In this document: positions 25,468 to 43,217 of the stretch, in pieces
How positions within the stretch are numbered: the stretch's first letter is position 1
How the letters are laid out: every line of letters starts with the position of its first letter
Source of the DNA: an uncultured Gammaproteobacteria bacterium
Lineage (GTDB): Bacteria; Pseudomonadota; Gammaproteobacteria; CAWCPV01
DNA: 64,000 nucleotides
Assembly: GCA_963797555.1 (NCBI GenBank)
Contig: CAWCPV010000016.1
Span: 1 to 64,000 of the forward strand
Direction of reading: 5' to 3'
Notes under the pieces: model-generated
The model's input: only the letters and a program-made list of their open reading frames with translations
Told to the model about the DNA's origin: nothing
Databases searched by the model: none
Program-made: the position numbers and the translations under genes

Positions 25468-26115
25468 CTAAGCAGCAAGCTTCTTCTGGATGGCGTCGAT
25501 GACGGCTTCGCTGGACGTCGCGCGGACAGTGACCAGCATCCCTTCCTTTTCATAGAAACCGACGAGAGGCGCGGTCTTCTTGTTGTAGGTCTCGAGGCGA
25601 TGGCTGATGGCCTCTTCGGTTTCGTCTTCGCGTTGGACGACCGGGCTGCCGCACTTGTCGCAGACACCTTCCTTCTTCGGGGGCTGACTCTTGACGTTGT
25701 AGATGGCCTGGCACTCGGGGTTGGAGCAGGTACGGCGGGTGGTGAGGCGGTCGAGGATGACCTCCCGAGCCACGTCGATGTTCACCGCCATATCGAGCTT
25801 GATGCCGAGCCTGGCCAGCAGGGCCTTCAGGGCCACGGCCTGCGGGATGGTGCGGGGGAAGCCGTCGAGGAGGAACCCCTTCTGACAATCGGGCTCCTGC
25901 AGCCGCTTCTCCATGATCCCCATGATGAGGTCATCGGGGACGAGATCCCCGCGCTTCATATACGCCTCGGCCTGCTTCCCGAGATCAGTCCCGGCCTGCA
26001 CGGCACCACGCAGGATGTCTCCCGTCGAGATCTGCACCGAGCCGTCCATCTGCGTCAGTAGCTTGGCCACCGTACCCTTGCCCGCACCCGGGGCTCCCAA
26101 CAGAATCAGCCGCAT
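25468..26115 (-). CDS. adk: Adenylate kinase (four-Cys zinc-type LID)
   Basis: GAPGAGKGT P-loop, STGDILR, LDGFPRT and LID CSNPEC...CDKC. Confidence 0.96.
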   Translation of the reverse strand: MRLILLGAPGAGKGTVAKLLTQMDGSVQISTGDILRGAVQAGTDLGKQAEAYMKRGDLVPDDLIMGIMEKRLQEPDCQKGFLLDGFPRTIPQAVALKALLARLGIKLDMAVNIDVAREVILDRLTTRRTCSNPECQAIYNVKSQPPKKEGVCDKCGSPVVQREDETEEAISHRLETYNKKTAPLVGFYEKEGMLVTVRATSSEAVIDAIQKKLAA

Positions 26116-26385
26116 CGTGTTCCCCTCTCAGGTCAATGGAACAAGCCCGCGTCCGGCGGGAGCTGTTACCCACCAGCCGAAGACCAAAGCCATGTATTTT
26201 GCCCATTGGAAGCCGCGGAGGTCAACGAACAGGTGCGTTTTGCCGCAGCAGCGAAGTAGCTATCGCGCCAAGCCTACGGTGCCGGCCGCATTCGCGGGGA
26301 CCGAGGGGGGACCGCGCAGCCTGCGCTCTGCCCTCATGTGGACATGATCGAGGCCGGTGAGGTTACGCCTCAGATTTAATCCCGC

Positions 26386-26787
26386 CTACGTTAGCTTGAT
26401 CTTACCGCCGCGCGGGATCCCCGCCGCCCCGCCGAGCCCCCCCTGTCGCACGTCCGGGACCACGATAGACGACGCCGCCTGGCGACGCAGTTGATTCAAC
26501 TCCTCGACGGTTCGGTCGACCGCGACCTTGGCCGCCGCGGCGAATTCCTTGAGTGCTTCCTCGAGCGAACGCGCGTCGATTTCAAACGTCAGCGGCACCG
26601 CACCGACTGGCGTGAGGAGCTGGGCCTGACCGACGTAAATCACCTTTCTCCTCACGTCCGTCGAGCCGTCGACCCTGACAGGCGTCAGCCGACGGATTGT
26701 GGCCAGTTTGCGGTCGGTGAAGGTCTCCTCGCGGAACAGGTCCGCGGGATCCATCTTGAGATCTGTCGCCGAGTTGCCGAGATCCAT
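26386..26787 (-). CDS. Conserved hypothetical cytoplasmic protein
   Basis: RBS AGGAGG; protein-like ORF LFREETFTDRK...GGKIKL. Confidence 0.75.
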   Translation of the reverse strand: MDLGNSATDLKMDPADLFREETFTDRKLATIRRLTPVRVDGSTDVRRKVIYVGQAQLLTPVGAVPLTFEIDARSLEEALKEFAAAAKVAVDRTVEELNQLRRQAASSIVVPDVRQGGLGGAAGIPRGGKIKLT

Positions 26788-26939
26788 GCTGTTGTCGCCT
26801 CCTACGCGAGGGTCACTGTATTCCAAGGAGCGCCTCTCCCAGACGTGGACGGCGCTGGACACTGGGCATCCAATGCCTCAGTGTTCGTGTCTTTCGCCCT
26901 CTTGCCGGTTTTCCGACTCAGGGAACAAGAGACGGCTCA

Positions 26940-27154
26940 GAGCTTGTGAAGAAATCGTCGCGAGCGGCCCGAGAGCAAGGCGCACGGAGCGCAGCGACGA
27001 GACATATCAAGTAGATGGGCGAGGAGCGACCGAATGGCAGGAAAGCCATTCGGCACGTCCGCGCGACGCCCCGAAGGGGTGGCGTACAGGAGGTACGCCA
27101 TGAACACCGCGCAACGCAGCTATCGGGACGCGCAGCAGATTTATTCACAAGCTC
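26940..27154. mobile_element. MITE (215 bp), probably IS5-family related
   Basis: 17-bp terminal inverted repeats GAGCTTGTGAAGAAATC / GATTTATTCACAAGCTC, one mismatch; TCA on both flanks; no transposase; second partial copy near 4.6 kb. Confidence 0.85.
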
Positions 27155-27813
27155 TCAGTTTTCCGGACTCCCCCCACAGTATAAAGGCGGTCCGGGCAGA
27201 GGGCACAGCCATGCGAGACCTCCCTCACCCCCCGAGCGTTGCGTCCCTGGGTGGTGGATCGCAGCCGCCGATTTTCCGAGGAGCGCCAAGGGTCAGCGGC
27301 GTCCGTCCCCGGCTTGCGCGGCCAATCCACGGGATACCGCTCGGTCTGCGCCGACGACCTCAGCGAGCATCCTCCAGCCACGAAGGCCACCGATGAACAG
27401 TCCGGGGTGAAGATTCCTGCCGAGGATGGACGCGAGGCATCGAAGGCGGGTGTTGAGTATGCGACAAGTTGTCATCTAAACTTGACAATATGAGCAGAGA
27501 GAGCCGCTACCCATCCGATAAAGACCCCCCGCGTGTGTCTGCGCGTACCCGAAGGCTGCCCGGCGCATCTGCAGGTGGCTGAGAACATGAAGGCGTGGGC
27601 AGAGGAATTGATCCGAACGGTCGAGCGCCTGGATGCGCGACAGGCCGCCCTGAGACCAATCGAGCCGCCGCCGCCGAGCTATGAACAGGCGCTCAAAGCG
27701 TTACCGCAGGGAGTGCAGGAGTGGGTGGCTACCTATGAGCGAGCCCCAGAGAGCAAAACGCGAGGCAGCGAAGATATTCTCGGCCAGGAGGGAGAACGGG
27801 AGGGAAATCGGAC

Positions 27814-28179
27814 GTGAAACGAAGGAAGCCATTCGCGCGGCGGCGCCAAGCGTTGGCGCTGGGGTTTGCCGCGGCCTTTGCATCTTCGGCGCAAGCGGCG
27901 CAATGCCAATTAAATGGCGTCTGGTACGACTATGGCAGTCCGGAATGCAGCGGCTCGCAGCCGGCGATCAATCCAAGCCCCGAGAGGCAGGAAAATGGTG
28001 CCGGGAAAGAAAATGGCGGACTTCGCGTGAATCGCTTTTACGGGAGTCGAGCGGGTATTACCGCACGTCATTTCGACCGACAAGACAACACTAGCGAAAT
28101 GCGTCGTCTACGTGCCGGACGGCGAGCCGGTTGCTGCGCGGGTGTCCAGAATATCGCCCCCGGCTCGAAGACGTCATAA
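27814..28179 (+). CDS. Hypothetical secreted protein, possibly degraded
   Basis: Signal-peptide-like N-terminus followed by CQLNGVWYDYGSPEC. Confidence 0.35.
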   Translation: MKRRKPFARRRQALALGFAAAFASSAQAAQCQLNGVWYDYGSPECSGSQPAINPSPERQENGAGKENGGLRVNRFYGSRAGITARHFDRQDNTSEMRRLRAGRRAGCCAGVQNIAPGSKTS

Positions 28180-28994
28180 TACGAACGACGGTGCCGTCAG
28201 TAGTGCTGGTGCGTTCTTCCCGGCAAGTAAAACGCAGATGAGGGAGGGGCGGGTGTGCCCGCCGAGCCGTCAACAAGCGTTACCGCCGCCCGGTGCGCCG
28301 GTCCCTTGAATCTGCTGACCCGGGCTGCGCCGGCCCCGAGCGCTCACGACGCGAGTGACTAGGTCTCGACCCACGCTCGGGCTCACGTCACTGTGCCATG
28401 ACGCGCTGGAGACCCGACCATCCCGGTAGAGGTTCAGGAGCAGCCACCCTTGAACCGCGTCGCCGCCGACCATCACCCTACGCGGTCTCTGCTGCACAAT
28501 CACGAACGCAGCACGCGCGGTGGTCCAGAACAAGGCCGCGGCGGTCCACGCCGACCAGGCCGGAGAAGCTGCAGTTCCCAGCAGCAATAGCCAGGGCTAC
28601 CAGGCCGCAATCGAGAGCTAAGTACTTCGCCAGGGCCATCGCCGACGAGGTATACCTCAGCGTCGCGGCGGCCGGTAACCGACGCCCGAAGACGGTGGTC
28701 GTGGTTCGGCCCCCGGTGTCAGTTGGCGAGCAATCCCTGAAACAGCGCTGCGCTCTCCCCCGCGCTGAAGGCGTGACGGTACAGCCGCAGCTCACCGTCG
28801 CGTATGTCCAGCCGCTGAACGGAGACCTCGGCCCCCCAATGCTGAAGCCCTCGCGGAGCTGTCGCGGTTTGTCGCAGAGTTCACGTGGATGATCGCCGCG
28901 CGCTCGCATCCGGGACGCCAGGAGGAACCATCATCGGCGTCGCTCACCGCGCCCAGGTCCCATCCGCCGGAGCCGGCATCCCGACAGCCGCGCA

Positions 28995-29900
28995 TCATCC
29001 GGCCCCCAGCATCGCCAGCAGGGGGGTCAGCGTGAGCGGGCTCAGGATCGTGGTGAAGAACACCACCGAGGTCGCGAAGGCGGGTTCCACGTCATACTGC
29101 GTGGCGAGCACGATGCAGACGACCGCGGACGGCATAGCCGACTGGAGGACGGCCGCTTGGTGTGCCGGCCCATCCAGACCCACGAGACGCGCGAGCAGCA
29201 TCCCCCACAGCGGCCCCCCGATGAGACGGATGCCTGCGGCCGCGACGAGCGGAACGAGCGGCGTGCCGAGCCCTTTCCCGTGGAGCTGCATCCCCAGGAT
29301 GATGAGGAAGGCCGGGATGCATGCCTTCCCAAGCAGGTCGACCGTCCGGGCCAGCGGAAACGGCAGGCTCCAGCCCGTTTGGACGGCGACGACCGCAAGG
29401 AGCACCGCCCAGATGGCAGGCACCTTGAAGACGCCTCGCAACGCATCGGCGAGGCTCGCGCGTCCCAGAGACGCGAGAAACACGCCGGCCGTGTACGTCA
29501 CGATCGCAGCGGTGACGAAGAACACGGTAGCTTGAGCGAGCCCTTTCTCCCCAAAGGCGAAGAGGTTTGCCGACAGGCCGATGTTGCCGGCATTGGGAAG
29601 GAGGACGACCAACACCACGGCCGCGGTCAACGGGCGCGGCCAGCGCCGCCACCAGGCGACGATGGCGGCCAGCGCCGCCAGACCGGAAAGGCTTATGAGG
29701 GTGAACACGACCATGCGAAGCACAGCATCCGCCGGCAGAGCGGTGGCGACGATGGCGTCGTAGACCAGGCATGGGGAGAGCACCAAGAACGCCACCTGCG
29801 CGAGCGGGCGCACGTCGACCTGGAGCCTTGCCGCCAATACATAGCCAGCCGCCGCAGCGAGGAAGATGGGCAGCAGATTGTCGGCGAAGACGGTCAGCAT
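28995..29900 (-). CDS. AEC (auxin efflux carrier) family transporter
   Basis: About 10 TM helices; PNAGNIGL and QSAMPSAV motifs. Confidence 0.9.
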   Translation of the reverse strand: MLTVFADNLLPIFLAAAAGYVLAARLQVDVRPLAQVAFLVLSPCLVYDAIVATALPADAVLRMVVFTLISLSGLAALAAIVAWWRRWPRPLTAAVVLVVLLPNAGNIGLSANLFAFGEKGLAQATVFFVTAAIVTYTAGVFLASLGRASLADALRGVFKVPAIWAVLLAVVAVQTGWSLPFPLARTVDLLGKACIPAFLIILGMQLHGKGLGTPLVPLVAAAGIRLIGGPLWGMLLARLVGLDGPAHQAAVLQSAMPSAVVCIVLATQYDVEPAFATSVVFFTTILSPLTLTPLLAMLGAG

Positions 29901-30781
29901 GGAAGCGAATCCGTTCTGTGATGGGCGTGCGGTACACCACACCCTGCCGAGCTGAAGGGGAGGAAGTACCGAGGCTGGTAGAAGAAGTCGAACTGCACAG
30001 GTCCCCATTCTAACTCAGGGAGGTAGCCGCGGTTTTGTCGGGGCTCGCCGAGCTGCGACCGATACAGCGCGGGTCAGCGACGGCCGGAGGTTCGAGACAC
30101 CACCCTGGCCACCCTATCACGGGGAGGGACAGGGTGCGGGTCGAGAGCCGAGGCTTCTCCCAAGCGCTGGGCGGGCTGTTCTCGGCCATGAAAACCGGGG
30201 GCTTCTTCGGGGCCGACTGCGGATAACGCAAACAGACGCTGCCGGTGCAGACCAGCGCTCGCCGACCCCCCATCCGCCGATCCGGCGGGGCACCGGGCTC
30301 AGACAGTGCTCGCCGACGCCCCCCGTGAAGCTGCGCGTCCTCGGCGGCGCACAAGGGACCGGAACGCGCCCGCCGTGGTCCGGCCCCACCTTCTCGCGGC
30401 ACCTGGGCGCCGACGCCTTGTGCTTTATACCGGCATGAGCCGCGTCGGCATCCTGCTCGGTCGCCGCGCGCCGTTTGCAGGCAGGTGCGGCCGCCGGTCC
30501 CCGCTGGCCCGGGCATCGAGCCGCGCCGGCAAACCGCGCACCCGGCTTGACAGCCCGTATCGCGCTCGTCAGACTCTCGCTGGAGAGCCAAGCGCTCCCT
30601 CCGGGGGAGTGCGGGCAAGCCTCCTCCTCGGGAGGGCGGCCGAAGGGTGGCGGACCAGACCACCGGGAGGCACATGGGAGGCCATCGCAGAGGACCAGGC
30701 ACCGTGGCGCGGTCGACGACATCGGACCGCGGTGGGAGGCCGCGTGTTGAGCGGAACGACCTTCCCCGTAAACGCCTGCGA

Positions 30782-30996
30782 GGATAGACGGACAATGTCC
30801 GCCTATCCCCGGAAGGGACGCCTGGCGTGCCGGGCCTCGTCAGTGTCGCGTGTCATGCAAGTGGCTGTTCGTCCAAGCGAATCACTCGCTCGGAAGCGAA
30901 CTGGGGAGTCCGGCGGCCGGGGCCCGGTCCTGCGGGATAGGCGGACAATGTCCGTGTTTAAACACGGACAACGTCCGTCTACTCATATGTTAGGGC
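30782..30996 (+). promoter_or_regulatory. Integron attI-like region
   Basis: Core GTTAGGGC (30989-30996) is complementary to GCCCTAAC at the end of cassette 1. Three CGGACAA(T/C)GTCCG palindromic repeats upstream (30789, 30942, 30965). No attC-like structure before it. Confidence 0.7.
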
Positions 30997-31017
30997 GATC
31001 AAGAGAAGGGACGTAAT

Positions 31018-31623
31018 GTGACAACACTAGATAAAGAACGACCCGCACAAGACATCGATCCCGATCCGCTTTCCGCATTGGTGATCGCACTTGGTGCCGT
31101 CGGATCCATTGCCTCTATCTATGCCGTAGTGGACTCAAGAGTTTCGAAATACAGGCAAGAGCGCCAAGCCAATTGCAATGCTATTCGTGATGCCGTGATG
31201 GGGGTGGAGACATCACTCAATGAGCTACGAGGGTACGTTAAGTCTCTCGAAATCAGCTTCTTGACGGGAACCCAGTCAAGATCGCCTGATCGAAACTCGA
31301 TGTTGTCGATGGCTCAGTTCGGAAGCGTTCGACTCGTTTTTACAAGAGATCGATACGAGAGATGGCGAGAGATCGAAGAGGGAATACTTGTCGCCGTTGG
31401 TAGGATGAATAAACATGTGAACGACTTGATTCGCCATTTTGCCACGTCTGATATTGCTTTACCTAGCGAAATCGCCAGCCGACTACAGAATACAATTGGT
31501 CGCATGAATGAAATACTTTCACGGAATGAGTCAAATGCATTTCGAACGGTTGTTCGGCCTCTTGGAGGCGGTAATGGGAGAATGCATGGAAGTTATGGGC
31601 CGATTCAGAATGACCATATATGA
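31018..31623 (+). CDS. Integron cassette 1: hypothetical protein with N-terminal TM helix
   Basis: Lower GC, lies between the attI-like site and attC1. Possible frameshift near 31520; the alternative frame ends at 31636. Confidence 0.75.
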   Translation: MTTLDKERPAQDIDPDPLSALVIALGAVGSIASIYAVVDSRVSKYRQERQANCNAIRDAVMGVETSLNELRGYVKSLEISFLTGTQSRSPDRNSMLSMAQFGSVRLVFTRDRYERWREIEEGILVAVGRMNKHVNDLIRHFATSDIALPSEIASRLQNTIGRMNEILSRNESNAFRTVVRPLGGGNGRMHGSYGPIQNDHI

Positions 31624-31638
31624 GATCTGCAGATGAAG

Positions 31639-31701
31639 CCCTAACCAGGCGCTCCAGCGGACCGCTCCTAACGTCGCGGCCGCTGAGCTTTATCGTTATG
31701 C
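31639..31701 (+). other. attC site 1
   Basis: CCCTAAC...GCTCCAGCGG...CCGCTGAGC...GTTATGC; imperfect palindrome with an extra-helical base. Confidence 0.9.
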
Positions 31702-31727
31702 TCTAGAGAAGCGCACAGGAACAAGGG

Positions 31728-32372
31728 ATGAACCTCACTGTTGAAGCTCTTAACGTTTTGCTGCTCCTTCTTCCGGGTTTTCTGTCCGGCCAGCTCTTTT
31801 ATTCTCTTTTCCGCCCGGGCGAAGTATCAATTTCTCAACGACTTCTTGACGCGTTGCTCTTTTCCTTCGTGGTGTATCTATTGGTATCATTGCTTGCAGA
31901 TTGGGAACCTCTTGCACAGGTGTCAAGGTCCGGCGGCAAATTGTCTTACCAATTCTCGAGTAACCCAAAGGTCATCCTTATATCTTTAGCTGCCGTAATA
32001 TCTATCCCGGTGTTTGGCGGATTCATCTATTTCAACGATCATCTTCATCGGCTACTTCGCAAGCTAAAGATTACAACGAAAACCTCACGCTCAAATACTT
32101 GGAACGACGCTTTCGTTACGCAAGACCGATACGTCATAGTAACGCTGAAAGACGGGCGTAGAATACGGGGATATCCGACAATGTTTTCAAACGACCCAGA
32201 GGAAGGGTTCGTATATCTTTATAACCCCGCTTGGGTTAATGACGATAAATCTCATGATGAGGAGCCAGATTATTTTGAATCGATTTGTCATGGCTTCCTT
32301 TTGAACAGAGATAACATTGACTTGATCGAGTTTACATTGGATCCTGGAGAAACACTAACTGCCACACAATAG
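31728..32372 (+). CDS. Integron cassette 2 ORF A: DUF6338-like membrane protein
   Basis: LLLLLPGF N-terminus, 3 TM helices, then TWNDAF...YVIVTLKDGRRIRG soluble domain. Confidence 0.78.
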   Translation: MNLTVEALNVLLLLLPGFLSGQLFYSLFRPGEVSISQRLLDALLFSFVVYLLVSLLADWEPLAQVSRSGGKLSYQFSSNPKVILISLAAVISIPVFGGFIYFNDHLHRLLRKLKITTKTSRSNTWNDAFVTQDRYVIVTLKDGRRIRGYPTMFSNDPEEGFVYLYNPAWVNDDKSHDEEPDYFESICHGFLLNRDNIDLIEFTLDPGETLTATQ

Positions 32373-32381
32373 GTGCGTGCT

Positions 32382-32510
32382 ATGAGAGAACGCAAGCCAG
32401 AGAAACCGACTGATCCAAGAGAACATGTAAGAGGCGAGGTAAAGCCTATTCGCTATGAACGGCCGGCGGAGAGACCTAAACCAACGCCGAACCCTCCCAA
32501 GAAAAAGTAG
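32382..32510 (+). CDS. Integron cassette 2 ORF B: 42-aa Pro/Lys/Arg-rich peptide (absent from the ORF track)
   Basis: AGGTG RBS; MRERKPEKPTDPREHVRGEVKPIRYERPAERPKPTPNPPKKK; stop codon 1 nt before attC2. Confidence 0.65.
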   Translation: MRERKPEKPTDPREHVRGEVKPIRYERPAERPKPTPNPPKKK

Positions 32511-32511
32511 C

Positions 32512-32599
32512 GCATAACAAGGCACTACAGCCGACGCGGGAAAGGCTAGCGGTTCTTCTGCTGGCACAGTGGGCGCGCGGCTGAGTTTGGACGTTAGAC
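32512..32599 (+). other. attC site 2
   Basis: GCATAAC (complement of the cassette start GTTATGC)...CAGCCG...CGGCTGAG...GTTAGAC. Confidence 0.9.
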
Positions 32600-32615
32600 G
32601 ACCGGGGGCACTTGT

Positions 32616-33197
32616 ATGTCATGGGAAGATAGCGCACCAATCGAACGACCATGCCCTTGCGGCACAGGGCAGTATGCCGTAATCGGACGCTCCGACGACT
32701 GGAACCGTTATGAGGAGCGATGGGAAATGCACTGCCCATCATGCAAAGAAAAATATGGTTTGTACGCCAGCAACTACAGTCGCAAAGGCATTCCATCCAC
32801 ATATCGCTGTTGGCTTCCGCGCCTACGTCTGAAAGAGTTGTCGGTTGCAGCCGAAGAGCTTGAGCAAGCGAAAAAAGCCCTGTCCGTTTATGCTACGGCA
32901 CACTACCAAGAACACTGGAACACGCACTTCATCGGTAAGGCGAAAAAGGCTATATGGCGCGAGCTTACGGAAGACGGAAAACACTACCCAAGTCTTCCTA
33001 CCTTCTATCTGCACGTCCGCGAGTCGAGCTTGGAACGACAACTTGCGCGATACTTCGACTATCGCGAATTACCAACCGTAGTGCGAGTGCTACAACTGAG
33101 CGCTTCTGAACTACATTCGCGCATCGAGCAGGTTCGTGAATTGGAGCACTTATTGGAAGAGAGTCATAGTAATGCGCGTCAGCAAGCGTTCGTCTAA
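32616..33197 (+). CDS. Integron cassette 3: hypothetical protein with N-terminal zinc-ribbon-like motif
   Basis: CPCG...CPSC; stop TAA lies inside the attC3 GTCTAAC box. Confidence 0.8.
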   Translation: MSWEDSAPIERPCPCGTGQYAVIGRSDDWNRYEERWEMHCPSCKEKYGLYASNYSRKGIPSTYRCWLPRLRLKELSVAAEELEQAKKALSVYATAHYQEHWNTHFIGKAKKAIWRELTEDGKHYPSLPTFYLHVRESSLERQLARYFDYRELPTVVRVLQLSASELHSRIEQVRELEHLLEESHSNARQQAFV

Positions 33198-33254
33198 CCC
33201 TACGCTCAAGCGGGACTGCGCAAAAGCGCGCGGCCCCTTAGCTTCACGTTAGGT
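33192..33254 (+). other. attC site 3
   Basis: GTCTAAC...GCTCAAGCGGG...CCCCTTAGC...GTTAGGT. Confidence 0.9.
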
Positions 33255-33267
33255 GTCTGGAGAACGC

Positions 33268-34113
33268 GTGACGAAAACCAAACTTCTCTTCGTAGACGAC
33301 GAAGCGTATCAATCACGGCTCTACAGCGATGCGCTGCTGGACGGTGGTTTCGACGTGCAGATTGCGGAGTCGGTCGATGAGGCACTCGAACTTGCCCGGT
33401 CCGATTCGTTCGACCTCATCCTGCTTGACGTTATGATGCCTTCTGGGTCGTTCTTCGAGGAGACGGAAACCGCGGGTGGGTTCACGACAGGGAAAGCTCT
33501 GGCACGGGAACTCGCCGAGATTCAGCCAGAGGCGAAGATCGTGGCCTTCACCAATTCGCGTGATCCCGAGATTGATGCGTGGTTCACGAAGGATGACACC
33601 GTTGCGTATATCCAGAAGCAAAACGTCTTGTACGATGAGCTGCCTCGAACTCTTCGCAAGGTCTTGCACCAAGGCGCTGAACCGCCGCAGGTCTTCATCG
33701 TTCATGGTCACGACCGGACAACCTTGCTGGAGTTCAAGAACTTCTTGCAGAACCGGCTAGGCCTGCCTGAGCCGTATATCTTCTCAGAGCAACCGAGTCG
33801 TGGGCTGACATTGATCGAGAAGTTCGAGAAGTACGCCGCAGAAGCGGATCTTGTCTTTGTCCTCCTCACTCCAGACGACCTCGGAGGCCCAGTGGATTCC
33901 GGTACTTCCAGCGCGCGGCCACGCCCAAACGTCGTCTTCGAGTACGGGTACTTCCTTGGGTCTCTTCAACGTCACAGTGGCCGCGTCTTCCTGCTCAAGA
34001 AGGGCGAGCCTGAGGTTCCGTCTGACATCACCGGGATCGTCTACGTGGATATCACGGACGGAATCGAAGCAGCCGCGGAAAGCCTGCGAAGGGAGCTGGA
34101 AGAGTGGCTGTAG
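33268..34113 (+). CDS. Integron cassette 4: receiver domain fused to a CAP12/Pycsar-type TIR domain
   Basis: REC domain (FVDDE, LLDVMMP, AFT, K) then QVFIVHGHD...IEKFE...LLTPDD...RPNVVFEYGYF...PSDITG. Confidence 0.88.
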   Translation: MTKTKLLFVDDEAYQSRLYSDALLDGGFDVQIAESVDEALELARSDSFDLILLDVMMPSGSFFEETETAGGFTTGKALARELAEIQPEAKIVAFTNSRDPEIDAWFTKDDTVAYIQKQNVLYDELPRTLRKVLHQGAEPPQVFIVHGHDRTTLLEFKNFLQNRLGLPEPYIFSEQPSRGLTLIEKFEKYAAEADLVFVLLTPDDLGGPVDSGTSSARPRPNVVFEYGYFLGSLQRHSGRVFLLKKGEPEVPSDITGIVYVDITDGIEAAAESLRRELEEWL

Positions 34114-34189
34114 GCCAGACACCTCTCAAGAAATACACTGCAAGCCGTTGATTTTTAATGGGTGAATTTTGGGTGTGTTTCTTCCATAC

Positions 34190-34690
34190 GCCTCCGCGGT
34201 AGGGACGCCGGTTACCCGGCGCCCCCCGCACAGACCCCGGCGTGCAGTTTTTCCGCACCGGGTTCCTCGGTTGCACTCGCTGGCGCGCAAGGTGCAGCCG
34301 TCAAGCGAACACCCTCCGCCGACTGACCTCGGTGATGCGGGGACGCTCTACCTGCATGCGCTCAAGGGCTTGGACGAAGGTCGCCCAGTGGAAGCTGCGC
34401 CGCTTGCCACCGCGCCGGTTGAGCCACTTGAACGTACAACGGATGGCCCAGTCAAAGAAGCGGTAGAGCGCAGCCGAGTTGCCCCGAACACCATAGTAGT
34501 GGTAGTGCCCCCGTAGCCTGCGGTTCAGGCCGGCGAAGAACTCACGCCCCGGCAGATGCCGGTGGTCCCTGATCCATGTCTTGATGCGCCGGCACGCCGC
34601 CTGCAACTTCTTGCGGGCAGTGCGCCGTTTCACCCGCACCACACCTTGTCGGTCGGGCATCCAGTAGAACTCGAAGCCCAGAATGGTGAA
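34190..34690 (-). mobile_element. 3' fragment of a group II intron (RT/maturase C-terminus, domains V and VI)
   Basis: FTILGFEFYW...LNRRLRGHYHYYG maturase; DV GAACCCGGTGCGGAAAAACTGCACGCCGGGGTC; DVI GGGGCGCCGGGTAACCGGCGTCCCTAC. Confidence 0.9.
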
Positions 34691-34709
34691 ATGGGGTCAG
34701 TCTCCATTT
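34689..34709. repeat. REP-like palindrome
   Basis: AAATGGGGTCAGTCTCCATTT at the junction between the intron and enolase fragments. Confidence 0.5.
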
Positions 34710-35070
34710 ATAGCGAAAAGGATCGCCTCGGCCAGCGTGGGTGCGCCGATGGGCACCACCATGAACTCCTGGATGTCGACGTTGTTCGCCGCGTGCAGCC
34801 CGCCGTTCAGGATGTTCATCATCGGCACCGGCATTTGGAACGGACCCTTCCCGCCCAAATAGGCATACAGCGGCACCCCGGTCTGCAGCGCGGCTGCCCG
34901 GGCGCAGGCCATGGACGCTCCCAGGATCGCGTCGCGCCGAGGCGCTCCTGGTGCTCCGGCGTCCAGCTCCAGCAGCCTACGGTCGATGGATCCTGGTCAG
35001 CCACCTCCGTGCCGACGAGCGCACGCCGTATCTCGCCGCGAATGTGGCCGACCGCCGTCAGCACCCCCCT
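34710..35070 (-). pseudogene. eno: Enolase internal fragment
   Basis: SMACARAAA...PLYAYLGG...[27 protein letters not shown]; frameshifted and truncated at both ends. Confidence 0.85.
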
Positions 35071-35084
35071 GCCGCATCAGCGCA

Positions 35085-35300
35085 CTAATGGGGCTTGAAC
35101 GCCTCCTGGACCTTCTCCGCCCAGAAGGTCATGTCGGGGTGCTGTGCACGCAGATCCTCGGCGCGTTTCTTGGCCTCTCCGTACGTCATCACTTGGTCGT
35201 GGTACTTGCCGGCCTCGAACTGGTACTTGGACCTCCAGGCCACTACGTACCCAGGATCGCTGTCCTGGACGGGCTTCATGCTGTCGTAGACCGCCGTCAT
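35085..35300 (-). CDS. Small hypothetical protein (71 aa)
   Basis: RBS AGGAGA then MTAVYDSMKP...FKPH; host-like codon usage. Confidence 0.7.
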   Translation of the reverse strand: MTAVYDSMKPVQDSDPGYVVAWRSKYQFEAGKYHDQVMTYGEAKKRAEDLRAQHPDMTFWAEKVQEAFKPH

Positions 35301-35791
35301 CGCTCTTCTCCTTTGCCTCGATGAATACCGAGCCGGCCATGGCGATGTTCGCCACGCCGGAACATGAAAACGGTTGCGCCGCCGCGAACCGGCACCCTCA
35401 TCTGACCCGCGGCATCTCTGCACGGTCGTGGAGACGGGAGCGGCTGCTCCATTCCCCACTCTACGGGGAAGGTTTGGGGGAGTCCTCGGGCGAAGGGGAC
35501 AAAGAGCGCCTGCAGCGTTTGCCGCCATGACGACGCCGACCTCGGCGATCGCAGCCCAATCGCACCCCGAACTACACCCACCAAGCTCGTTATTGTAACG
35601 GTCGCCCGAGGCTCGGAAAACACTTCCAGCGCCGCGACCGGACCCCGCTGCGGCCGGACGGCCCCCCGCCACGCGGTTGCACGCCCGTTGGACGAGTCCG
35701 GTATCGAGTCGCGCATCATCGGGGTATCGCCCCCGTTGGAATGGATCAGTAACCCTGGCGGGTCGGGCGCCGGATGAGGCCGGAGCTTGGA

Positions 35792-36784
35792 TCAACGCCC
35801 GGCGATGCGGTCAGACAGGATCCCCGCGGCGGTCGCGAAATAGTCCGAGCGGTTCCACTTGAGCAGAGCGCGGTAGTTGTCATAGACCGCGTAGGCCGCA
35901 CCGTCCGCACCGCCGGGCTGCACTATCGACGTCGGCAGGTCGGCAGGAGGCAGGGCACCCCCGTTGGCTCGGCGCACTCCCAGGGCACGCCATGCATCGA
36001 GGGGCCGGACCTGGTCGCGTCCGATGAGGCCATGATCGAATCCCTTGGGCAGGCGTACTTGGCGTCCCCAGGTCTGATTCGAGCGCCAGCCGAGATGCTT
36101 CAGATAATTGGCTGCGGAAGCGAATACGTCGGCTTTCGTTGCCCAGAGGTCGCGGCGCCCGTCGCCATCTTGGTCCACGGCGTAACGCCGAAAGCTCGAC
36201 GGCATGAACTGCACCTGCCCCATGGCGCCGGCCCACGACCCGGTCATGCGCTCCACCGGAATAGCATCCTCATCGAGGATGTGCAGGGCGTCGAGCAGCT
36301 CGCGCCTGAAGTAGGCGGCCCGCCGCCCGTCGTACGCCAGGGTGACCAGAGCCCCGATCACGGGGAAGCTGCCGGTCAGCCGGCCGTAGTCGCTCTCGAT
36401 CCCCCAGAGGGCCACGATGAACCGGGGCTGAACGCCATACTCCGCGCCGACACGTTCGAGCAGCCCGCGGTTCTCCCGGAGCATCCTGCGCCCGACCTCC
36501 ACTCGGCTGTCCGGGACGACCCGCTGCAGATACTCCTGGAAGGTGAGGGTAAACTCCGGTTGTGCCCGGTCCAGCTCGATGACGCGGGGAACTGGAGAAA
36601 GCCCCGTCAGGGCCGTCTCCAACGTATGAGCCGAGACGCCGGCGCGCAAAGCGTCCTTACGCAGCTCCTGGAGCCAGCCGGCGAACGGCTGCGAGGACGC
36701 CTGTGCCTCCGGTCCCGACGGGGGCAGCGGCAGCATCGCGCAGGCCGCAAGAAATGCACAGAAACGCCGTGCTCCATAAGTCAC
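35792..36784 (-). CDS. Lytic murein transglycosylase (MltB/SLT_2 family)
   Basis: ALWGIESDYG, GSWAGAMGQVQFMPSSF and WNRSDYFA motifs. Confidence 0.93.
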   Translation of the reverse strand: MTYGARRFCAFLAACAMLPLPPSGPEAQASSQPFAGWLQELRKDALRAGVSAHTLETALTGLSPVPRVIELDRAQPEFTLTFQEYLQRVVPDSRVEVGRRMLRENRGLLERVGAEYGVQPRFIVALWGIESDYGRLTGSFPVIGALVTLAYDGRRAAYFRRELLDALHILDEDAIPVERMTGSWAGAMGQVQFMPSSFRRYAVDQDGDGRRDLWATKADVFASAANYLKHLGWRSNQTWGRQVRLPKGFDHGLIGRDQVRPLDAWRALGVRRANGGALPPADLPTSIVQPGGADGAAYAVYDNYRALLKWNRSDYFATAAGILSDRIAGR

Positions 36785-37423
36785 TTTAGCGGTCCCTACC
36801 TTCGCGGCCGCTTATGTTCCCACGCACGCCGCTCCCTGGGTAGGCACCGCAGAACCAGCCACGAGCGGCTTGCGGCACGTGTTGCCTCCCGGCATCATGC
36901 GTATCCGCCATGCCGGCTCTTGGCTAACCGCTGCCGTGCCGAGCGCCTGCCACGCTGCCGGTCGCTGCTCGGTCAGCCGGCGCCCGCACGGGCCGCGGCC
37001 CCCTGTCGTCCTCGCCCAACCTTGACCCCTCCACGGGACCTTTGCCATAGTGCATCGGGGGGAAACACTACACCACACCGAGAGCGGGGAGCGGTCCATG
37101 CACTACATGTCCACTGGACAAGCCGGACTCAGAGGGGCCCGAGCGCCGGACGGCCGAAGGTCAAGGCGCAGCAACAGGTGGCCCGAGCCGCCCCATCTGG
37201 GTCGGTGGCAAGGACCGCAAGGAGGTCGACCTCGATACGTCCGTCCGCGCCCTGGGCCCGCTGAGAGCGCGCGGGCCGAGCTATCCGTCATGGACATGTG
37301 GAATGCCTTTCGCAACTCGCGGGGCGCAATGCCCCTAAAGGCGCGCATCGTGTTCGGCCAGCGGCAACGACCGCTCCTACCTCGAGGGCCAGCGGGGCAA
37401 GTGATGGTCCCTTCGAACCCGTG

Positions 37424-38482
37424 ATGGGCCGGGCGGATAGCGACCCTCTTGGCGGCGGACTCCGCCCGAGGCGGAGCCGGCGTGTCCTGCCTTTGCTAGC
37501 CAAGGGCATGGTGGCCACGGTCGTGGCCACGGGGACCGCTTGGGGGATTCTCGCCCTGTGGTTCGACGGACCCGAGCCGCGCTGGCTGGCGGGCGCTCTC
37601 GCCGGCATCTATGGGGTCGGTACTTTGGCGGTTCTGGCGCTGGTGCGGCCTTTCTGGCGCGCCGCAGCCATAACGGCCGCGGCGCTGCTGGTCCTGATGG
37701 GATGGTGGCTGTCCATTCCGCCGAGCAACGACCGGGCCTGGTACCCGGACGTCGCCCGGCTCGCCACCGCGACCATCAACGGCAATCTCCTCACCGTTCA
37801 CAACGTGCGCGACTTCGACTATCGGTCGGAGACCGACTACGACGAGCATTGGGAGACCAGGACTTACGATCTGAACAAGCTCCTGGGGGTCGACCTGTTC
37901 CTCTCGTACTGGGGCTCGCCCGTCATCGCCCATACCATCGCGAGCTGGGAGTTCGCCGACCAACCACCGCTCGCCATCTCCATCGAGGCGCGCAAGGCCG
38001 TGGGGCAGTCCTACTCGGCCGTGCGCGGATTTTTCAGGCAGTACATGCTCTACTACGTGGTCGCCGACGAGCGCGACGTGATCCGACTGCGCACCAACCA
38101 CCGAGGCGAGGAGGTGTACCTCTACCGGATCAAGATGCCGTTGGACCACGCCCGCGCGCTCCTGCTGCAATATATGTCCGACATCAACCACCTCGCCGAG
38201 CACCCGCGCTGGTACAACGCCCTCACACAGAGCTGCACGACTACCATCCGCTATCACCTCAAGCACATTGGACCAACCAGACCGTGGAACTGGCGCATCC
38301 TGGTGAACGGCTATCTCGACGAGCTGATGTACCAGCGGGCTACTATCGATACCAGCCTCCCCTTCCGGGAGCTACGCGCCCGCAGCGACATCACGGCGAA
38401 GGCGAAGGCCGCCGACCAGGACGCCGGCTTCTCCCGGCGCATCCGGGAGGGGCTTCCGACACCTTGGCCGTTCAAGTCGTGA
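37424..38482 (+). CDS. DUF4105 (Lnb N-terminal-like) membrane protein
   Basis: 3 TM helices; IAHTIASW and WYNALTQSCTT motifs. Start codon uncertain. Confidence 0.82.
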   Translation: MGRADSDPLGGGLRPRRSRRVLPLLAKGMVATVVATGTAWGILALWFDGPEPRWLAGALAGIYGVGTLAVLALVRPFWRAAAITAAALLVLMGWWLSIPPSNDRAWYPDVARLATATINGNLLTVHNVRDFDYRSETDYDEHWETRTYDLNKLLGVDLFLSYWGSPVIAHTIASWEFADQPPLAISIEARKAVGQSYSAVRGFFRQYMLYYVVADERDVIRLRTNHRGEEVYLYRIKMPLDHARALLLQYMSDINHLAEHPRWYNALTQSCTTTIRYHLKHIGPTRPWNWRILVNGYLDELMYQRATIDTSLPFRELRARSDITAKAKAADQDAGFSRRIREGLPTPWPFKS

Positions 38483-38489
38483 GCCGCAA

Positions 38490-38940
38490 CTCGGGCGTGC
38501 GGCCGGCATCGTGCCCGTCGACAGCCCGCAGCCCCACAGTGGGGGCAGACCAGCAGAAACACCTCGTAGATTCTCACCAGCAGCATCGCCCACAGGGATG
38601 AGACGTGCGTTCGGTGCACCGTCTCTGCGGCGCGCTGCACCGAACCGAACCGGTGCAGGAACGAGACAGCTCCAAAACGGCACCGGAACCCGCCCCGGGC
38701 TTGCCTGCCGCAGTGTCTCGTCCACCACTCGCGGAAGAGATGGAGCGCTGCGCTCACCACCGCAGGGTCGTGGTGCAGGACGTATCTCAGCCGCTTGGGA
38801 GCTGACAACACCCACTGTGCGCCGCGGTCTCTACCATGCGCCGCGTCATGCACGAGGGGCAGACACCACACCTCTTGCAGGAGAAGGCGATCAGGAAATC
38901 TGGCCGCACTCCGAGCAGCGCGCTCGGGCAGGCCCCGCAA
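38490..38940 (-). mobile_element. Internally deleted IS91-like transposase remnant
   Basis: QWVLSAPKRLRY, GAVSFLHRFGS and LWAMLLVRIYEVFLLVCPHCG motifs joined across a large deletion. Confidence 0.7.
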
Positions 38941-38947
38941 CCGAGCT

Positions 38948-39349
38948 TCAGAAGTGGATGGCGAGCCCGCCTCTGGCCGACAAGAAGTTCAGCGCGGTGG
39001 CACTGCTGGTGCTCGCCGGATTGGAGATGTCGCTGGTGGTCAGAACTGCATCTAGGCCCGCAAACAAGACGGTATTGTCGGTGAGGTAGAAATCTATGCC
39101 GCCCCCGACGCGCCCCGCGAATCCACTATTGTTTACCTCGAGCCCCAGGCCACCCTTGCCTTTCAGGTTGTAGGTTGCATCCCCAACGCCCACCTTCAGG
39201 AATGGCTGGACGCGTCCCATGGGAGCGTAAACCTTCAGGTTCACGGTATAAACATTGCCATCGACGGTGAGAACGTTCGCGTTGAACAGGTTGACGTTGA
39301 AGCCGGAAACCCACTCGTATTCAAACTCCGTGGACAGGTACGGGGACAC
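38948..39349 (-). pseudogene. Outer-membrane beta-barrel protein, 5'-truncated by IS5
   Basis: Amphipathic strands, RVQPFLKVGVG and GRVGGGIDFY, terminal Phe; no signal peptide. Confidence 0.72.
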
Positions 39350-39854
39350 TGCTCGATCGCGCCAACACCAGCACCGAGGCTGGGCCGACAGCGCCTACCG
39401 CTCCGAGGAGACCGAGCGGCTGCTGCGTAAGAAAGGGCTCAGGAGCCGGATTCACCGTCGCGGTCACCGTCACAAGGCGCTCAGCGTGCACCAGCAAGCG
39501 CTCAACCGGCGCCGCTCAAGCATCCGGGTGCGCGTCGAGCATGTCTTCGGCTCCCAGCACAACGAGCAAGGCGGCAAGCTCGTGCGAACCATCGGAGGGG
39601 TGCGTGCGAGGGCCAAGATAGGGCTCATGAATCTCGTCTACAACATGCCCCGGCTGAGCTACCTGGTCAGCTCAGGCGGTAAAGGTCCGATGCCGGCACC
39701 GGCCTGATCGCCGCCGGAGCCTCCGCCCGGCGCCCGCAAGGCGACGGGAGCCCTCCCAAAACCCCTCAAAAACCACTCGCTTTGACCCAATTCCCTCATC
39801 CGTGACTCGATCAGAGGGACCGACCGGCGCCAAAACCAATTCTTCGAGGTGCCC
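39350..39854 (+). mobile_element. IS5-family element, 3' half only
   Basis: Closely similar to the reverse complement of 22466-22960; ends in TTCGAGGTGCCC. Confidence 0.9.
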
Positions 39855-40091
39855 TGAAGGCAGTGTGCTTCTCATGCTGTGCTCCTTCCGAAGTGGTGAA
39901 GAGTTGTGCCAATGACAGTGCCGCCGGCTGAGCCCCGCGGCGGGTCCCGACTATGCGACGCTACCGACACCGAGTCCTCCGGAAAGCGGACGACCTGGTT
40001 TTCCGAGATATACATCTAATACCAAATTTCGGTTTTTAGTTGCCGATGATTTGGAAATTCTCGGTCAACAGAGAACGCGGACCCTTCAGCA

Positions 40092-40905
40092 TCACTTCGG
40101 GAACATCAGTTGCACCTGGAACCGGAACTGCCAGTCCGCGCCGCCGTCGGGATGCACCACGTTGGAGTACGCGCTGAACTGCGTGTTCACCGGCAGCTTG
40201 CCCAAGTGGAAGATCTTGCCGACGCCGCCGCCGAGCGGCACGGTCCACTTCTGGCCGCTGGCGGCCTTCCAGTCGACGGTCAGGATGGGCGCACTGACGA
40301 GATACAGGCCGCCCTTGAAGTTGTAGTTGACGAACGGCTGGATCAGACCGTTGTTGTAAGAGCCGCCCCGCTCGTTGCTCGACAGCGACCACACATTGTT
40401 GACCAGCGCTCCGTACACCCAAGGATCGCCGTGCTCGACATGCAGCAGCACGGCCGACGGTCCCAGCCCCCAATTCTTGTTGCCGAGCTCCGCGTTGCTG
40501 TCGGTCGGTATCTGTACGACCGGCCCCGCCCCCCATATCCATTTGCCCGGTTTGGCAGGAGACAGGAACGCCGTGAACACCGTATCGCCGATGCCGGTGG
40601 TGGCGCTGTCGCCCGGGCCCAGCGAGGGGTTCGAGATCACGGGCAGGATCGTGCGCGTGATGACATTCCACTCGCTGCTCACGGAGATGGGGATCACCGG
40701 CTGGATGTTGAGGATGTTCTGGGTGCCCTTCTCCGACCCGAAGTTGAAATTCGTATTGTTCTGGAACGGCACGCTGATCAGGTTGCCGACCGGGTTCTGT
40801 GCGAGCTTCGCCAGGTCCTCGGCGCTCATCTCGGCCCGCGCCGGGGCAGTGAGCGCGGCGGCGACGCTGACGGCGAGGAGTGCGCGGGAAAGAATGGTTT
40901 CAAGT
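40092..40905 (-). CDS. Outer-membrane protein of the so-called neuromedin U / transporter-like family
   Basis: LAKLAQNPVGNLISVPFQNN, NIQPVIP, WTVPLGGGVGK and terminal FPK. Probable frameshift just after a TTG start. Confidence 0.82.
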
Positions 40906-41386
40906 TGGTATCCTCTTTCGCCCGACCGGCCGGCGCGCCTCACCGCCGGAAGCCGTGGAAGCTGTCCAAACCACCATGCCAGCCGCCCAAACCGCCACGG
41001 CGACCGCGCAGCCAAAGGAGAGCCCCGTCATGGCGAGCACTGCGACGCCCACTCGGGAGCTGCCAGCTTCAGTTTCACTCTCACTCGCGGACCTCTATCC
41101 ACTCGTTACCGATAAAGCTCCATCGGCACCACACGGGTATATCCGGCTGTCAGCTTCCCATGGATCGGGTGGCGCATTGCCGCTTCGCAGGGGCGCGCAC
41201 TGGACGGTGGATTTATACTGGACCGCATCCGACAGTTCCATTCGGTCGACCACCTAGGCTACGTACGTAGTCGGACAAGGGGTCAGCTCGTCGCGCCCCC
41301 ATCTCTTCTCTCGGCGAGGACCGCATGCAGATCGGCCTGCCGCTCCGCGCCGGACTCGAGGACCAAGTCGGCGGCGTCCGCGTTGC

Positions 41387-41510
41387 TCACGATGGCGCCC
41401 GTGGTTGGTTGATCTCGTGGGCCATCGAGGCGGTGAGCTCGCCGGCCATGGCGAGGCGCGACGCGCGCAGCAGCTCGAAGCGGGTGCCGATAACTCGCCC
41501 GCTTACAGGC
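41387..41510 (-). pseudogene. Histidine kinase H-box fragment
   Basis: RASRLAMAGELTASMAHEINQP in an otherwise broken frame. Confidence 0.65.
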
Positions 41511-42124
41511 GTAATGGGCAAAAAGTCCTGGGCGCGATGTCCGTCTTCCGGCGTTGGCGATTGCAGCAATCGGGATGCAGATGACCATCCAGAGACCGAC
41601 TCTGGCACCTCGGATCGCGGCAGGGTCGGGCCAGGGGACCATTATGTCCTCCTCGCTCGATCTTGGCGCCGCGCTGCTTCACGGGACGCTTGACGCCCCG
41701 CTCCGAGGCCGTGTCTTGGTCGGCAACGAGGCCGGACATTTCGGCCGACCGGTCATCCAGCAGGCACTTATGAGAGGGATGCCCTGCCCCAATTTTGGGG
41801 TTCACTAATCAAGTGCGCCTTTGCCCACCTGCACCAGGCCTCCCGAAACTGGCCGGGATTGACCGGTTTGTTCCCCAGAGCTACGCTGCAAGTATATCCG
41901 AGGCGGTCAGAGTTTCGATTTTTGGGCGGCTTCATGGGGGGGCGGGCGCTCGTGTCCAAGGCCGAAGCAGGGGATTTCCGCCATACCGCCCGAGACGGAG
42001 ACTACCCGAGAATAGTGCTCTCCATCCCAAACAATCTGCTCAACACGCTGATCCAGGCAATCTCGCCGAAGGGCATATCTGAGGTGGTCCGACCCCCATG
42101 TGAGGGCTGAGACCGGGAGGCCGT

Positions 42125-43208: not shown

Positions 43209-43217
43209 CGCGGCGGA

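Follow-up and report, generated by a model that had tools for sequence, protein, structure and literature searches.

Would a response regulator that carries an effector domain be useful to its host, or even safe, without its kinase? The question is posed by a gene in the 64,000-nucleotide stretch of DNA analysed here (the window), which is positions 1–64,000 of contig CAWCPV010000016.1 from an uncultured Gammaproteobacteria bacterium (assembly GCA_963797555.1; contig C16 of genome G000 in our numbering). The gene, called REC-TIR below, lies on an integron cassette and encodes a receiver (REC) domain fused to a TIR domain of the kind found in CBASS Cap12 proteins and Pycsar effectors. We favour, at a probability of roughly 0.55, the reading that REC-TIR is a response regulator whose output is a CAP12-type TIR NAD+ glycohydrolase (NADase), from a large family that normally operates in a dedicated phosphorelay with a small, sensor-less kinase. 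The copy in the window is, judging from its genomic setting and that of its relatives, a derived orphan of this family. A preliminary description of the gene had read it as a candidate stand-alone defence effector gated by phosphorylation; phosphorylation control of a TIR NADase is still the most economical reading, and the stand-alone state needs a different explanation.

Both halves of the protein are readily placed in known families. The frame is open from 33253 to 34113 on the plus strand, and the public gene call (P0001) starts at the GTG at 33268, with a ribosome-binding-site-like GGAGAA 6 nucleotides ahead of it. Residue numbers here follow the resulting 281-residue protein, and Pfam domain ranges follow a 286-residue numbering. 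Response_reg (PF00072) matches residues 12–123 (E = 1e-10, 42.2 bits, cut-off 30.2) and CAP12-PCTIR_TIR (PF10137) matches residues 146–267 (E = 1e-29, 103.4 bits, cut-off 24.7), the latter over profile positions 1–117 of 119. NCBIfam and a sequence search of the Protein Data Bank return the same two halves, as many response regulators and as CD-NTase-associated protein 12 (chains 7un8 and 9lmq). In PADLOC the TIR half matches the candidate PDC-S35 (E = 1.7e-41), CBASS TIR effectors and PycTIR. The receiver has the motifs FVDDEAY (D10, D11), LLDVMMP (phospho-acceptor D54), AFTNS (T95) and YIQK (K117), as well as a long, conserved loop between strand 3 and helix 3 with the motif ETAGGF, seen in loop alignments. 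The TIR domain has RPNVVFE, which carries E225.

D54 and E225 are each invariant among the 108 relatives compared (108/108); position 10 is acidic in 104, D11 is kept in 102, T or S stands at 95 in 106, and K117 is present in 100 and replaced by R in seven more. In the TIR domain R219 and N221 are each found in 107 relatives and D253 in 105. A HMMER alignment to Cap12 chain 7un8 places R219, N221 and E225 on R78, N80 and E84 of SfSTING, and D253 on D110, the residue that, in the available text of the SfSTING work, extends into the partner subunit's active site and completes it in trans (PMC9402430). By all sequence features that could be tested, the protein belongs to the receiver family and to the CAP12/Pycsar TIR family. 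The proposal of an intact receiver joined to a CAP12-type TIR with a putative catalytic glutamate is thus upheld, with every motif it named present and both Pfam cut-offs passed.

An AlphaFold2 model of the protein from a 108-row alignment has a mean predicted local distance difference test score (pLDDT) of 90.5 and a predicted template-modelling score of 0.76, and its Foldseek matches are TIR-STING 9lmq_B and CheY-like response regulators, among them 3crn_B with a TM-score by target of 0.84. As a homodimer the protein scored 0.71, with 0.01 for the best of three controls, and so passed a mark attained by 20 of 30 proteins whose solved structure is a pair of one chain, and by 1 of 23 whose structure is a single chain, although this pass may come from likeness, because the interface resembles the solved TIR-STING dimer. 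The homodimer runs share at least 92% of their contacts, and pLDDT for the partner is at least 80. The interface involves the TIR domain only (residues 148, 181–190, 202–235 and 249–257) and is centred on 224–232 of both chains, with residue 253 of one chain contacting 224 and 183 of the other; the predicted TIR–TIR dimer forms via helix αC. Solved CAP12-type TIRs likewise have an active site that is completed across the TIR–TIR contact, and in them the sensor domain drives assembly and thereby activity, according to the available text (PMC9402430).

We lean towards a mechanism in which phosphorylation of D54 promotes or re-orients TIR–TIR packing and so switches on NAD+ cleavage. Unphosphorylated REC-TIR would be inactive. 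Phosphorylation of D54 would alter packing of the receivers and let the TIR domains come together; the αC helices would then pair, and D253 of one subunit would reach the E225 site of the other, completing a shared NADase site. Cleavage of NAD+ would stop cell growth before the phage cycle is completed, which would give the protein, where it is expressed, a role in defence. The unphosphorylated form is taken as the off state because kinase-less copies persist, and the orphans scattered among the relatives (9 of 26 loci) fit a harmless unphosphorylated form.

The fusion itself is, on the sequences in hand, a common architecture. A word-indexed search found 341 proteins at E up to 0.001, and both Pfam domains are present in 106 of the 120 near-length homologues among the matches listed, whose source names include “predicted nucleotide-binding protein”, “CheY-like chemotaxis protein” and “TIR domain-containing protein”. 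When 1.84 billion cluster representatives were searched exhaustively with a profile, 4,483 proteins matched at E up to 1e-30, and 140 of the best 150 of these extend over its full length. Within a 401-genome sample of the phylum, a full-length copy occurs only in the window’s own genome, the sole representative of its order in the collection, and the seven other matches cover the TIR part only. The gene has a G+C content (GC) of 0.567, compared with 0.641 for the whole window, and this low GC together with the single full-length copy in the phylum sample points to horizontal acquisition. A metagenome scan for close relatives with flanks gave two partial loci, neither of which supplies context for proteins 60–89% identical.

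Other relatives were scanned with Pfam as well. The N-terminal regions of 37 TIR-only relatives had no Pfam match, and 13 long relatives included HPr+REC+TIR and NB-ARC+REC+TIR fusions as well as versions in which a second REC precedes the TIR. One of them, P0176, is the HPr+REC+TIR fusion; another, P0147 (719 residues), joins NB-ARC, a winged helix, REC and TIR, and resembles a nucleotide-binding leucine-rich-repeat (NLR) form of the REC-TIR unit. The HPr and NB-ARC fusions suggest that this unit is wired to several different inputs.

What usually accompanies the fusion was read from the genome collection, where 26 of the 80 loci retained have a match that extends over both domains; 154 of their 173 neighbouring open reading frames (ORFs) were scanned against Pfam, the 19 outermost being left out. 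In 17 of the 26, a HATPase_c gene, mostly also with HisKA, lies within 2.6 kb and usually adjacent. Ten (L012, L020, L021, L022, L025, L026, L027, L030, L032 and L037) have a three-gene unit of kinase, stand-alone REC and REC-TIR, and nine (L011, L016, L017, L018, L019, L023, L039, L045 and L049) have no kinase, three of these with short flanks. The recurrent partner kinases are highly alike, 256–310 residues long, with H-box, N-box and G-boxes; ahead of the H-box they have only a short coiled stretch, in which Pfam finds no sensor domain. The stand-alone receivers of the three-gene units are 128–159 residues long (mostly about 138) and, L012 excepted, share the unusually long strand 3–helix 3 loop of REC-TIR, which suggests that the same kinase serves both receivers.

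Because relatives pair REC-TIR with a dedicated kinase in 17 of 26 loci, we regard the orphan state as derived. The surrounding-gene survey therefore both bears out and revises the preliminary description: the architecture is widespread, the usual context is a kinase nearby, and standing alone is not supported as the design of the family. Likewise, the activators proposed there (host kinase cross-talk, acetyl-phosphate or a phage protein) are not supported as the family’s general design, since the relatives have a dedicated kinase; cross-talk and acetyl-phosphate stay live for the orphan copy. On a tree of the 26 proteins the window protein pairs with the orphan L011 (support 89/80, below the tool’s thresholds for a well-supported fork). 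The orphan state is scattered over that tree (seven changes; 191 of 500 shuffles as low), from which we conclude that kinase loss happened repeatedly, and three-gene units are clustered (four changes; 1 of 500 shuffles).

The DNA around the window copy is set out in Table 1. The cassette stretch is about 3.2 kb long, has four ORFs on the same strand, and is lower in GC (0.47–0.57 per cassette) than the 0.641 of the window. Its attC sites were found with a covariance model, R1, built from seven aligned integrase-linked sites of the same genome, in which 8 of 18 consensus pairs show compensatory change. Searched over the 64-kb window with filters off, R1 gave three matches only, all on the plus strand, and the next best reached 9.6 bits. 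The sites sit exactly between the ORFs, and attC 3 ends 13 bases ahead of the REC-TIR start codon. Two other approaches were dropped: the attC bottom strands folded as DNA gave uninformative z values of -0.5 to -1.3, for which the covariance model was substituted, and a genome-wide scan for attC-like hairpins by regular expression and folding was too noisy for use.

Table 1. The REC-TIR gene, its domains and the surrounding cassette array, in window coordinates.
Feature	Position	Strand	Details and evidence
REC-TIR gene	33268..34113	+	281 aa, GTG start; Pfam domains, public gene call P0001
Receiver (REC) domain	33286..33621	+	PF00072, residue counts, loop alignments; D54 codon 33427-33429
CAP12/Pycsar-type TIR domain	33688..34053	+	PF10137; putative catalytic E225 codon 33940-33942; R219, N221, D253 present
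Left flank	30253..30988	+	GC-rich repeat, no convincing ORF, strong palindrome before first cassette; BLASTN
GTTAGGG junction	30989..30995	+	R'-type core, start of cassette 1; sequence
Cassette 1 ORF	31018..31623	+	201 aa, no family match; Pfam, PADLOC, NCBIfam
attC site 1	31638..31702	+	Model R1, 44.3 bits, E 3.6e-10
Cassette 2 ORF	31728..32372	+	214 aa, DUF6338; PF19865, E 2.8e-20
attC site 2	32511..32599	+	Model R1, 47.2 bits, E 5.4e-11
Cassette 3 ORF	32616..33197	+	193 aa, weak CapR-like match; PF21817, E 0.003, 18.1 bits, below cut-off 24.2
attC site 3	33191..33255	+	R' core GTTAGGT, start of REC-TIR cassette; model R1, 30.9 bits, E 2.5e-06
Group II intron remnant	34189..34660	-	Conserved 3' RNA end and C-terminal maturase fragment, 119 aa; GIIM PF08388, E 3.8e-06
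Enolase gene fragment	34697..34912	-	Rearrangement scar; PF00113 positions 3-42 of 296, E 2.3e-15

Independent support for the mobility of these cassettes comes from public contigs, in which unlike sequence adjoins cassette 1, the beginning of cassette 3 and attC 3 at attC-defined boundaries. Cassette 1 has a second copy in the genome (window 31000–31700 is 99.7% identical to C7:293364–294062), with left flanks only 85% alike, and a contig of sequencing run X4 has cassette 1 from 30987 onwards with unlike letters before it. A contig of run X1 starts matching at 32591, again after unlike letters, and the 59-bp attC 3 site recurs with unlike flanks in contigs of runs X1, X3 and X4. Contigs of four DNA runs, which carry small shares only, match the whole of cassette 1, portions of cassettes 2 and 3, attC 3, a short conserved receiver stretch (33405–33440) and the intron end; the remainder of the REC-TIR gene is not covered in these contigs. 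No RNA run that carries the locus is listed among the public sequencing runs.

The preliminary description had placed the gene alone on its cassette with no kinase or cyclase, and the attC model and family searches agree: Pfam, PADLOC and NCBIfam find no cyclase, kinase, STING, SAVED or cyclic-nucleotide-binding match in the four cassette proteins. A functional link to the 193-residue protein encoded just upstream was considered and rejected, because the X1 contig has different sequence after that cassette and because no relative’s neighbour with a Pfam match has its weak CapR family.

The REC-TIR cassette is the last (fourth) unit of a decayed, mosaic locus. Model R1 finds no attC downstream of 34113 in the window, so that the cassette lacks a 3' attC of its own, and the position expected for that site is occupied by the intron remnant. 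The segment 34191–34690 is 94.8% identical to C4:300986–301486, next to an RVT_1 ORF; about 100 bp of the group II intron end is repeated on C3, C4, C7, C9 and C14 and reaches very high depth in each of the four metagenome runs. Around the REC-TIR gene, an Rfam scan of 26000–42000 at E up to 1 recognised neither a group II intron nor any other family. The enolase fragment directly abuts the remnant and is a copy from elsewhere in the genome, 92.9% identical to C4:459416–459779. On the other side, the left flank is 85% identical to C4:573867–574576, with shorter copies on C4, C7 and C9, and the copy on C4 sits upstream of a unit of a Phage_integrase (tyrosine recombinase) gene and an IS91 Y2 transposase gene. 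A TIGR02249 search found no integron integrase on contig C16, and the array is therefore an integrase-less cluster of attC sites. Palindromes of the GGACAATGTCC type are repeated at 30786–30812 and 30943–30985, directly upstream of cassette 1, and the hairpin folded from 30930–31010 has a z of -4.88 relative to shuffles; they may mark where an element ends or serve in regulation.

Elsewhere in the genome the partners seen in relatives were sought with family profiles. The best match to the partner-kinase profile has 78.6 bits, compared with 399–440 within the family, and the best match to the spare-receiver profile has 50.7 bits, compared with 117–206, so that no cognate kinase and no spare receiver, the candidate buffer discussed below, was found; nor was a REC-TIR paralogue or an HPr, with the limit that the assembly is only 84.6% complete and these absences are accordingly not proven. 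The genome has two acetate kinase hits and three of the phosphotransacetylase-type PTA_PTB, two of the latter beside an acetate kinase, and acetyl-phosphate is therefore an available donor. We picture a gene that would have been captured as a single integron cassette, with neither kinase nor buffer; any phosphate on D54 in this genome would then be supplied by a non-cognate kinase or by acetyl-phosphate.

The same surroundings lend themselves to another explanation, in which REC-TIR is a stored or decaying orphan, a kinase-less remnant kept unexpressed as the last unit of a degraded array, and inert in this host until it comes to lie behind a promoter or regains a kinase. The window has no integrase, the gene is followed by no attC, the intron remnant and enolase fragment are directly downstream, and the kinase, buffer receiver and HPr are missing from what is assembled. 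Promoter-like sites in the array number two, with 1.8 expected, which leaves no recognisable, let alone significant, promoter, and cassettes far from a promoter can be carried unexpressed, as the available text of a study of mobile-integron defence reports (10.1101/2024.07.02.601719). Yet the frame is intact, all conserved catalytic and receiver residues are kept, a ribosome-binding-site-like motif precedes the start, and kinase-less copies recur among the relatives. On balance we think simple storage or decay unlikely, if worth keeping in view.

Several observations count against the phosphorylation-gated NADase that we prefer. The dimer model has no receiver contacts and is therefore silent on how phosphorylation would act. 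The cognate kinase and buffer were not found in the genome, as described above, and a gene that stands fourth in an array with no recognisable promoter, without integrase or attC of its own, may be silent. Some relatives lie in conserved neighbourhoods that look like housekeeping ones, unlike defence islands: three Acidobacteriota loci (L012, L013 and L017) have in common, next to REC-TIR, genes for a TPR protein and a metallophosphoesterase as well as uvrC, and L020 lies near enolase and phosphoglycerate mutase, L039 near pyruvate kinase with HPr. In the literature searched we found no activity, phosphorylation or phage test of any family member. Finally, TIR domains can make signalling nucleotides rather than deplete NAD+.

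The closest parallel in layout is Detocs. There, the kinase phosphorylates a receiver–effector, phosphotransfer activates it, and both the kinase histidine and the phospho-acceptor aspartate are needed for defence; a spare receiver is proposed to act as a buffer for stray phosphorylation that prevents autoimmunity, all according to the available text (10.1101/2023.01.24.525353). The kinase, stand-alone receiver and receiver–effector of our 10 three-gene loci mirror DtcA, DtcB and DtcC, and the window copy, with REC + TIR architecture, is like DtcC a receiver fused to a putative cell-stopping effector. The effector differs, being a TIR in place of the ATP nucleosidase, as do the partner kinases, which are small with no sensor domain seen, whereas DtcA carries TPRs. 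PADLOC gives no Detocs-named match for the relatives’ partner proteins. By analogy, REC-TIR may act as a Detocs effector would if its enzyme were exchanged. Because the window copy has neither kinase nor buffer receiver, it does not by itself make up a Detocs system.

The preliminary description had allowed that the architecture might already belong to a described system. This is half true: the layout parallels Detocs, but TIR is not among the effectors named in the available Detocs text (PNP, restriction endonuclease (REase), TOPRIM and a transmembrane hydrolase), a text that does not include Table S5 (10.1101/2023.01.24.525353). We found no description of a receiver–TIR protein or of its kinase module in the literature searched, which did not extend to subscription papers or to the Detocs and TIR-survey supplements. 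That defensive two-component systems swap their effector domains is an idea already published, and because it is an accepted theme the surprise is moderate; the orphan on a cassette is a twist on it whose function is putative. If the family is a phosphorylation-gated NADase, TIR would join the effectors carried by defensive two-component systems, and BeF3- or acetyl-phosphate would provide a simple test-tube switch for a TIR enzyme, instead of a cyclic nucleotide.

A bolder version of this parallel would make kinase, spare receiver and receiver–TIR an undescribed, widespread, TIR-armed counterpart of Detocs, and the orphans one-gene abortive-infection switches that read small phosphodonors or stray kinase activity (acetyl-phosphate and non-cognate kinases here, HPr in other hosts), with the phosphotransfer network itself as the thing guarded. 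We hold this to be improbable.

The direction of the switch could also be reversed. In such a guard arrangement, phosphate from a constitutive, sensor-less kinase or from acetyl-phosphate would hold the TIR off, and loss of phosphate during infection or energy collapse would switch it on. The small partner kinases, with no sensor domain in Pfam, and the genome’s ability to make acetyl-phosphate are compatible with this. However, copies without a kinase would on this view be toxic all the time, save where acetyl-phosphate is enough; a buffer receiver would have little purpose with the phosphorylated state as the safe one; and in Detocs, whose layout is closest, phosphotransfer activates the effector (10.1101/2023.01.24.525353, available text). 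We therefore give the reversed switch only a slim chance.

Equally slim, in our estimate, is the chance that the family has nothing to do with defence and is made of metabolic or signalling response regulators that tune NAD+, or make an ADP-ribose-derived signal, on carbon or energy status. The evidence that brings this to mind is the company some relatives keep. HPr-type phosphocarrier genes with the active-site histidine motif lie 22 bp after the REC-TIR gene in L019 (L019:6880–7263) and 12 bp before it in L039 (L039:5548–5967), two loci in which REC-TIR has no kinase nearby; with the HPr+REC+TIR fusion, they hint at a link to the phosphoenolpyruvate (PEP) phosphotransfer system. Enolase, phosphoglycerate mutase, pyruvate kinase, a PEP-utilising enzyme and NAD synthase are among the neighbours, and the uvrC synteny is kept in the three Acidobacteriota genomes. 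Against it stand the NB-ARC+REC+TIR fusion, the membership of the TIR clade (CBASS and Pycsar effectors and PADLOC’s PDC-S35), the transposase or integrase genes beside L011, L021, L032 and L049, the position of the window gene on an integron cassette, and the fact that no HPr was found in this genome. We can set aside as having a negligible chance the idea that the protein begins with a cRec-type enzyme domain, which would process cyclic phosphates of ADP-ribose products, in place of a phospho-receiver. A divergent domain that resembles receivers and is linked to NAD+/ADP-ribose enzymes is described, but in the available text it is defined as never occurring with histidine kinases (PMC7824862, PMC9503650), whereas a kinase is encoded close by in 17 of 26 relatives, and the domain here is above the Response_reg cut-off with the full D-D-D-T-K set.

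REC-TIR differs from the systems to which its TIR domain is related. It shares family PF10137 with CBASS Cap12 (TIR-STING and TIR-SAVED) and Pycsar PycTIR, matches the Cap12 chains 7un8 and 9lmq, and conserves the equivalents of SfSTING R78, N80, E84 and the trans-acting D110, but its regulatory domain is a phospho-receiver, and STING, SAVED and cyclic-nucleotide-binding domains are absent. Lacking both a cyclase and a nucleotide sensor, the window gene is not a CBASS or Pycsar component. The best PADLOC match of REC-TIR is PDC-S35, which we take to be an untested single-gene candidate and whose name did not occur in the literature searched. Four of the five PDC-S35 models align with the TIR half only (query 135–284), leaving the candidate’s N-terminal part unmatched; the best of these covers query 140–284 with model positions 114–252 of 264. 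The fifth, PDLC05007, covers query 91–283 with model positions 80–266 of 278.

Integron cassettes are known carriers of phage defence, and in the available text of the mobile-integron study its main text mentions homologues of the Thoeris sensor ThsB, with no TIR and no response regulator (10.1101/2024.07.02.601719). Like the phage-defence integron cassettes (BRiCs), REC-TIR is a compact gene of a defence-type family directly after an attC in a cassette array; unlike them, it lies in an array without an integrase and on a cassette without its own attC. Whether integrons spread such half-systems between hosts is a further question that the locus raises. Model R1, run on the loci of 28 relatives, gave a single match (L016:2285–2346, 22.6 bits) that does not flank the gene, a scan that says little because the model is tuned to the sites of this genome.

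Integrons are also present elsewhere in the genome. A complete integron at C7:43754–48500 has an integrase (C7:47556–48500, 502.5 bits), the only place in the genome where TIGR02249 scores above its cut-off, and at least five attC sites. A second locus, C3:989422–993501, has a truncated integrase and three attC sites, and one attC is identical between the C7 and C3 arrays (88.6 bits in both). A second TIR protein, of the TIR_2 family (PF13676, 435 residues), is encoded on C4 (L101:737–2147) and starts directly after an attC match (32.5 bits); its gene lies in another integrase-less array, with two identical units of tyrosine recombinase and IS91 Y2 transposase nearby.

Two features of the window lie outside the array. 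On the minus strand at 27022–27092 there is a weak PtaRNA1-like match, the only one from the Rfam scan; it scores 28.7 bits (E = 0.033), short of the gathering score, which is 47. On the plus strand, the ORF at 42125–43228 has a Cys-loop ion-channel ligand-binding domain (PF02931, E = 7.4e-12) and is a relative of the bacterial pentameric channels.

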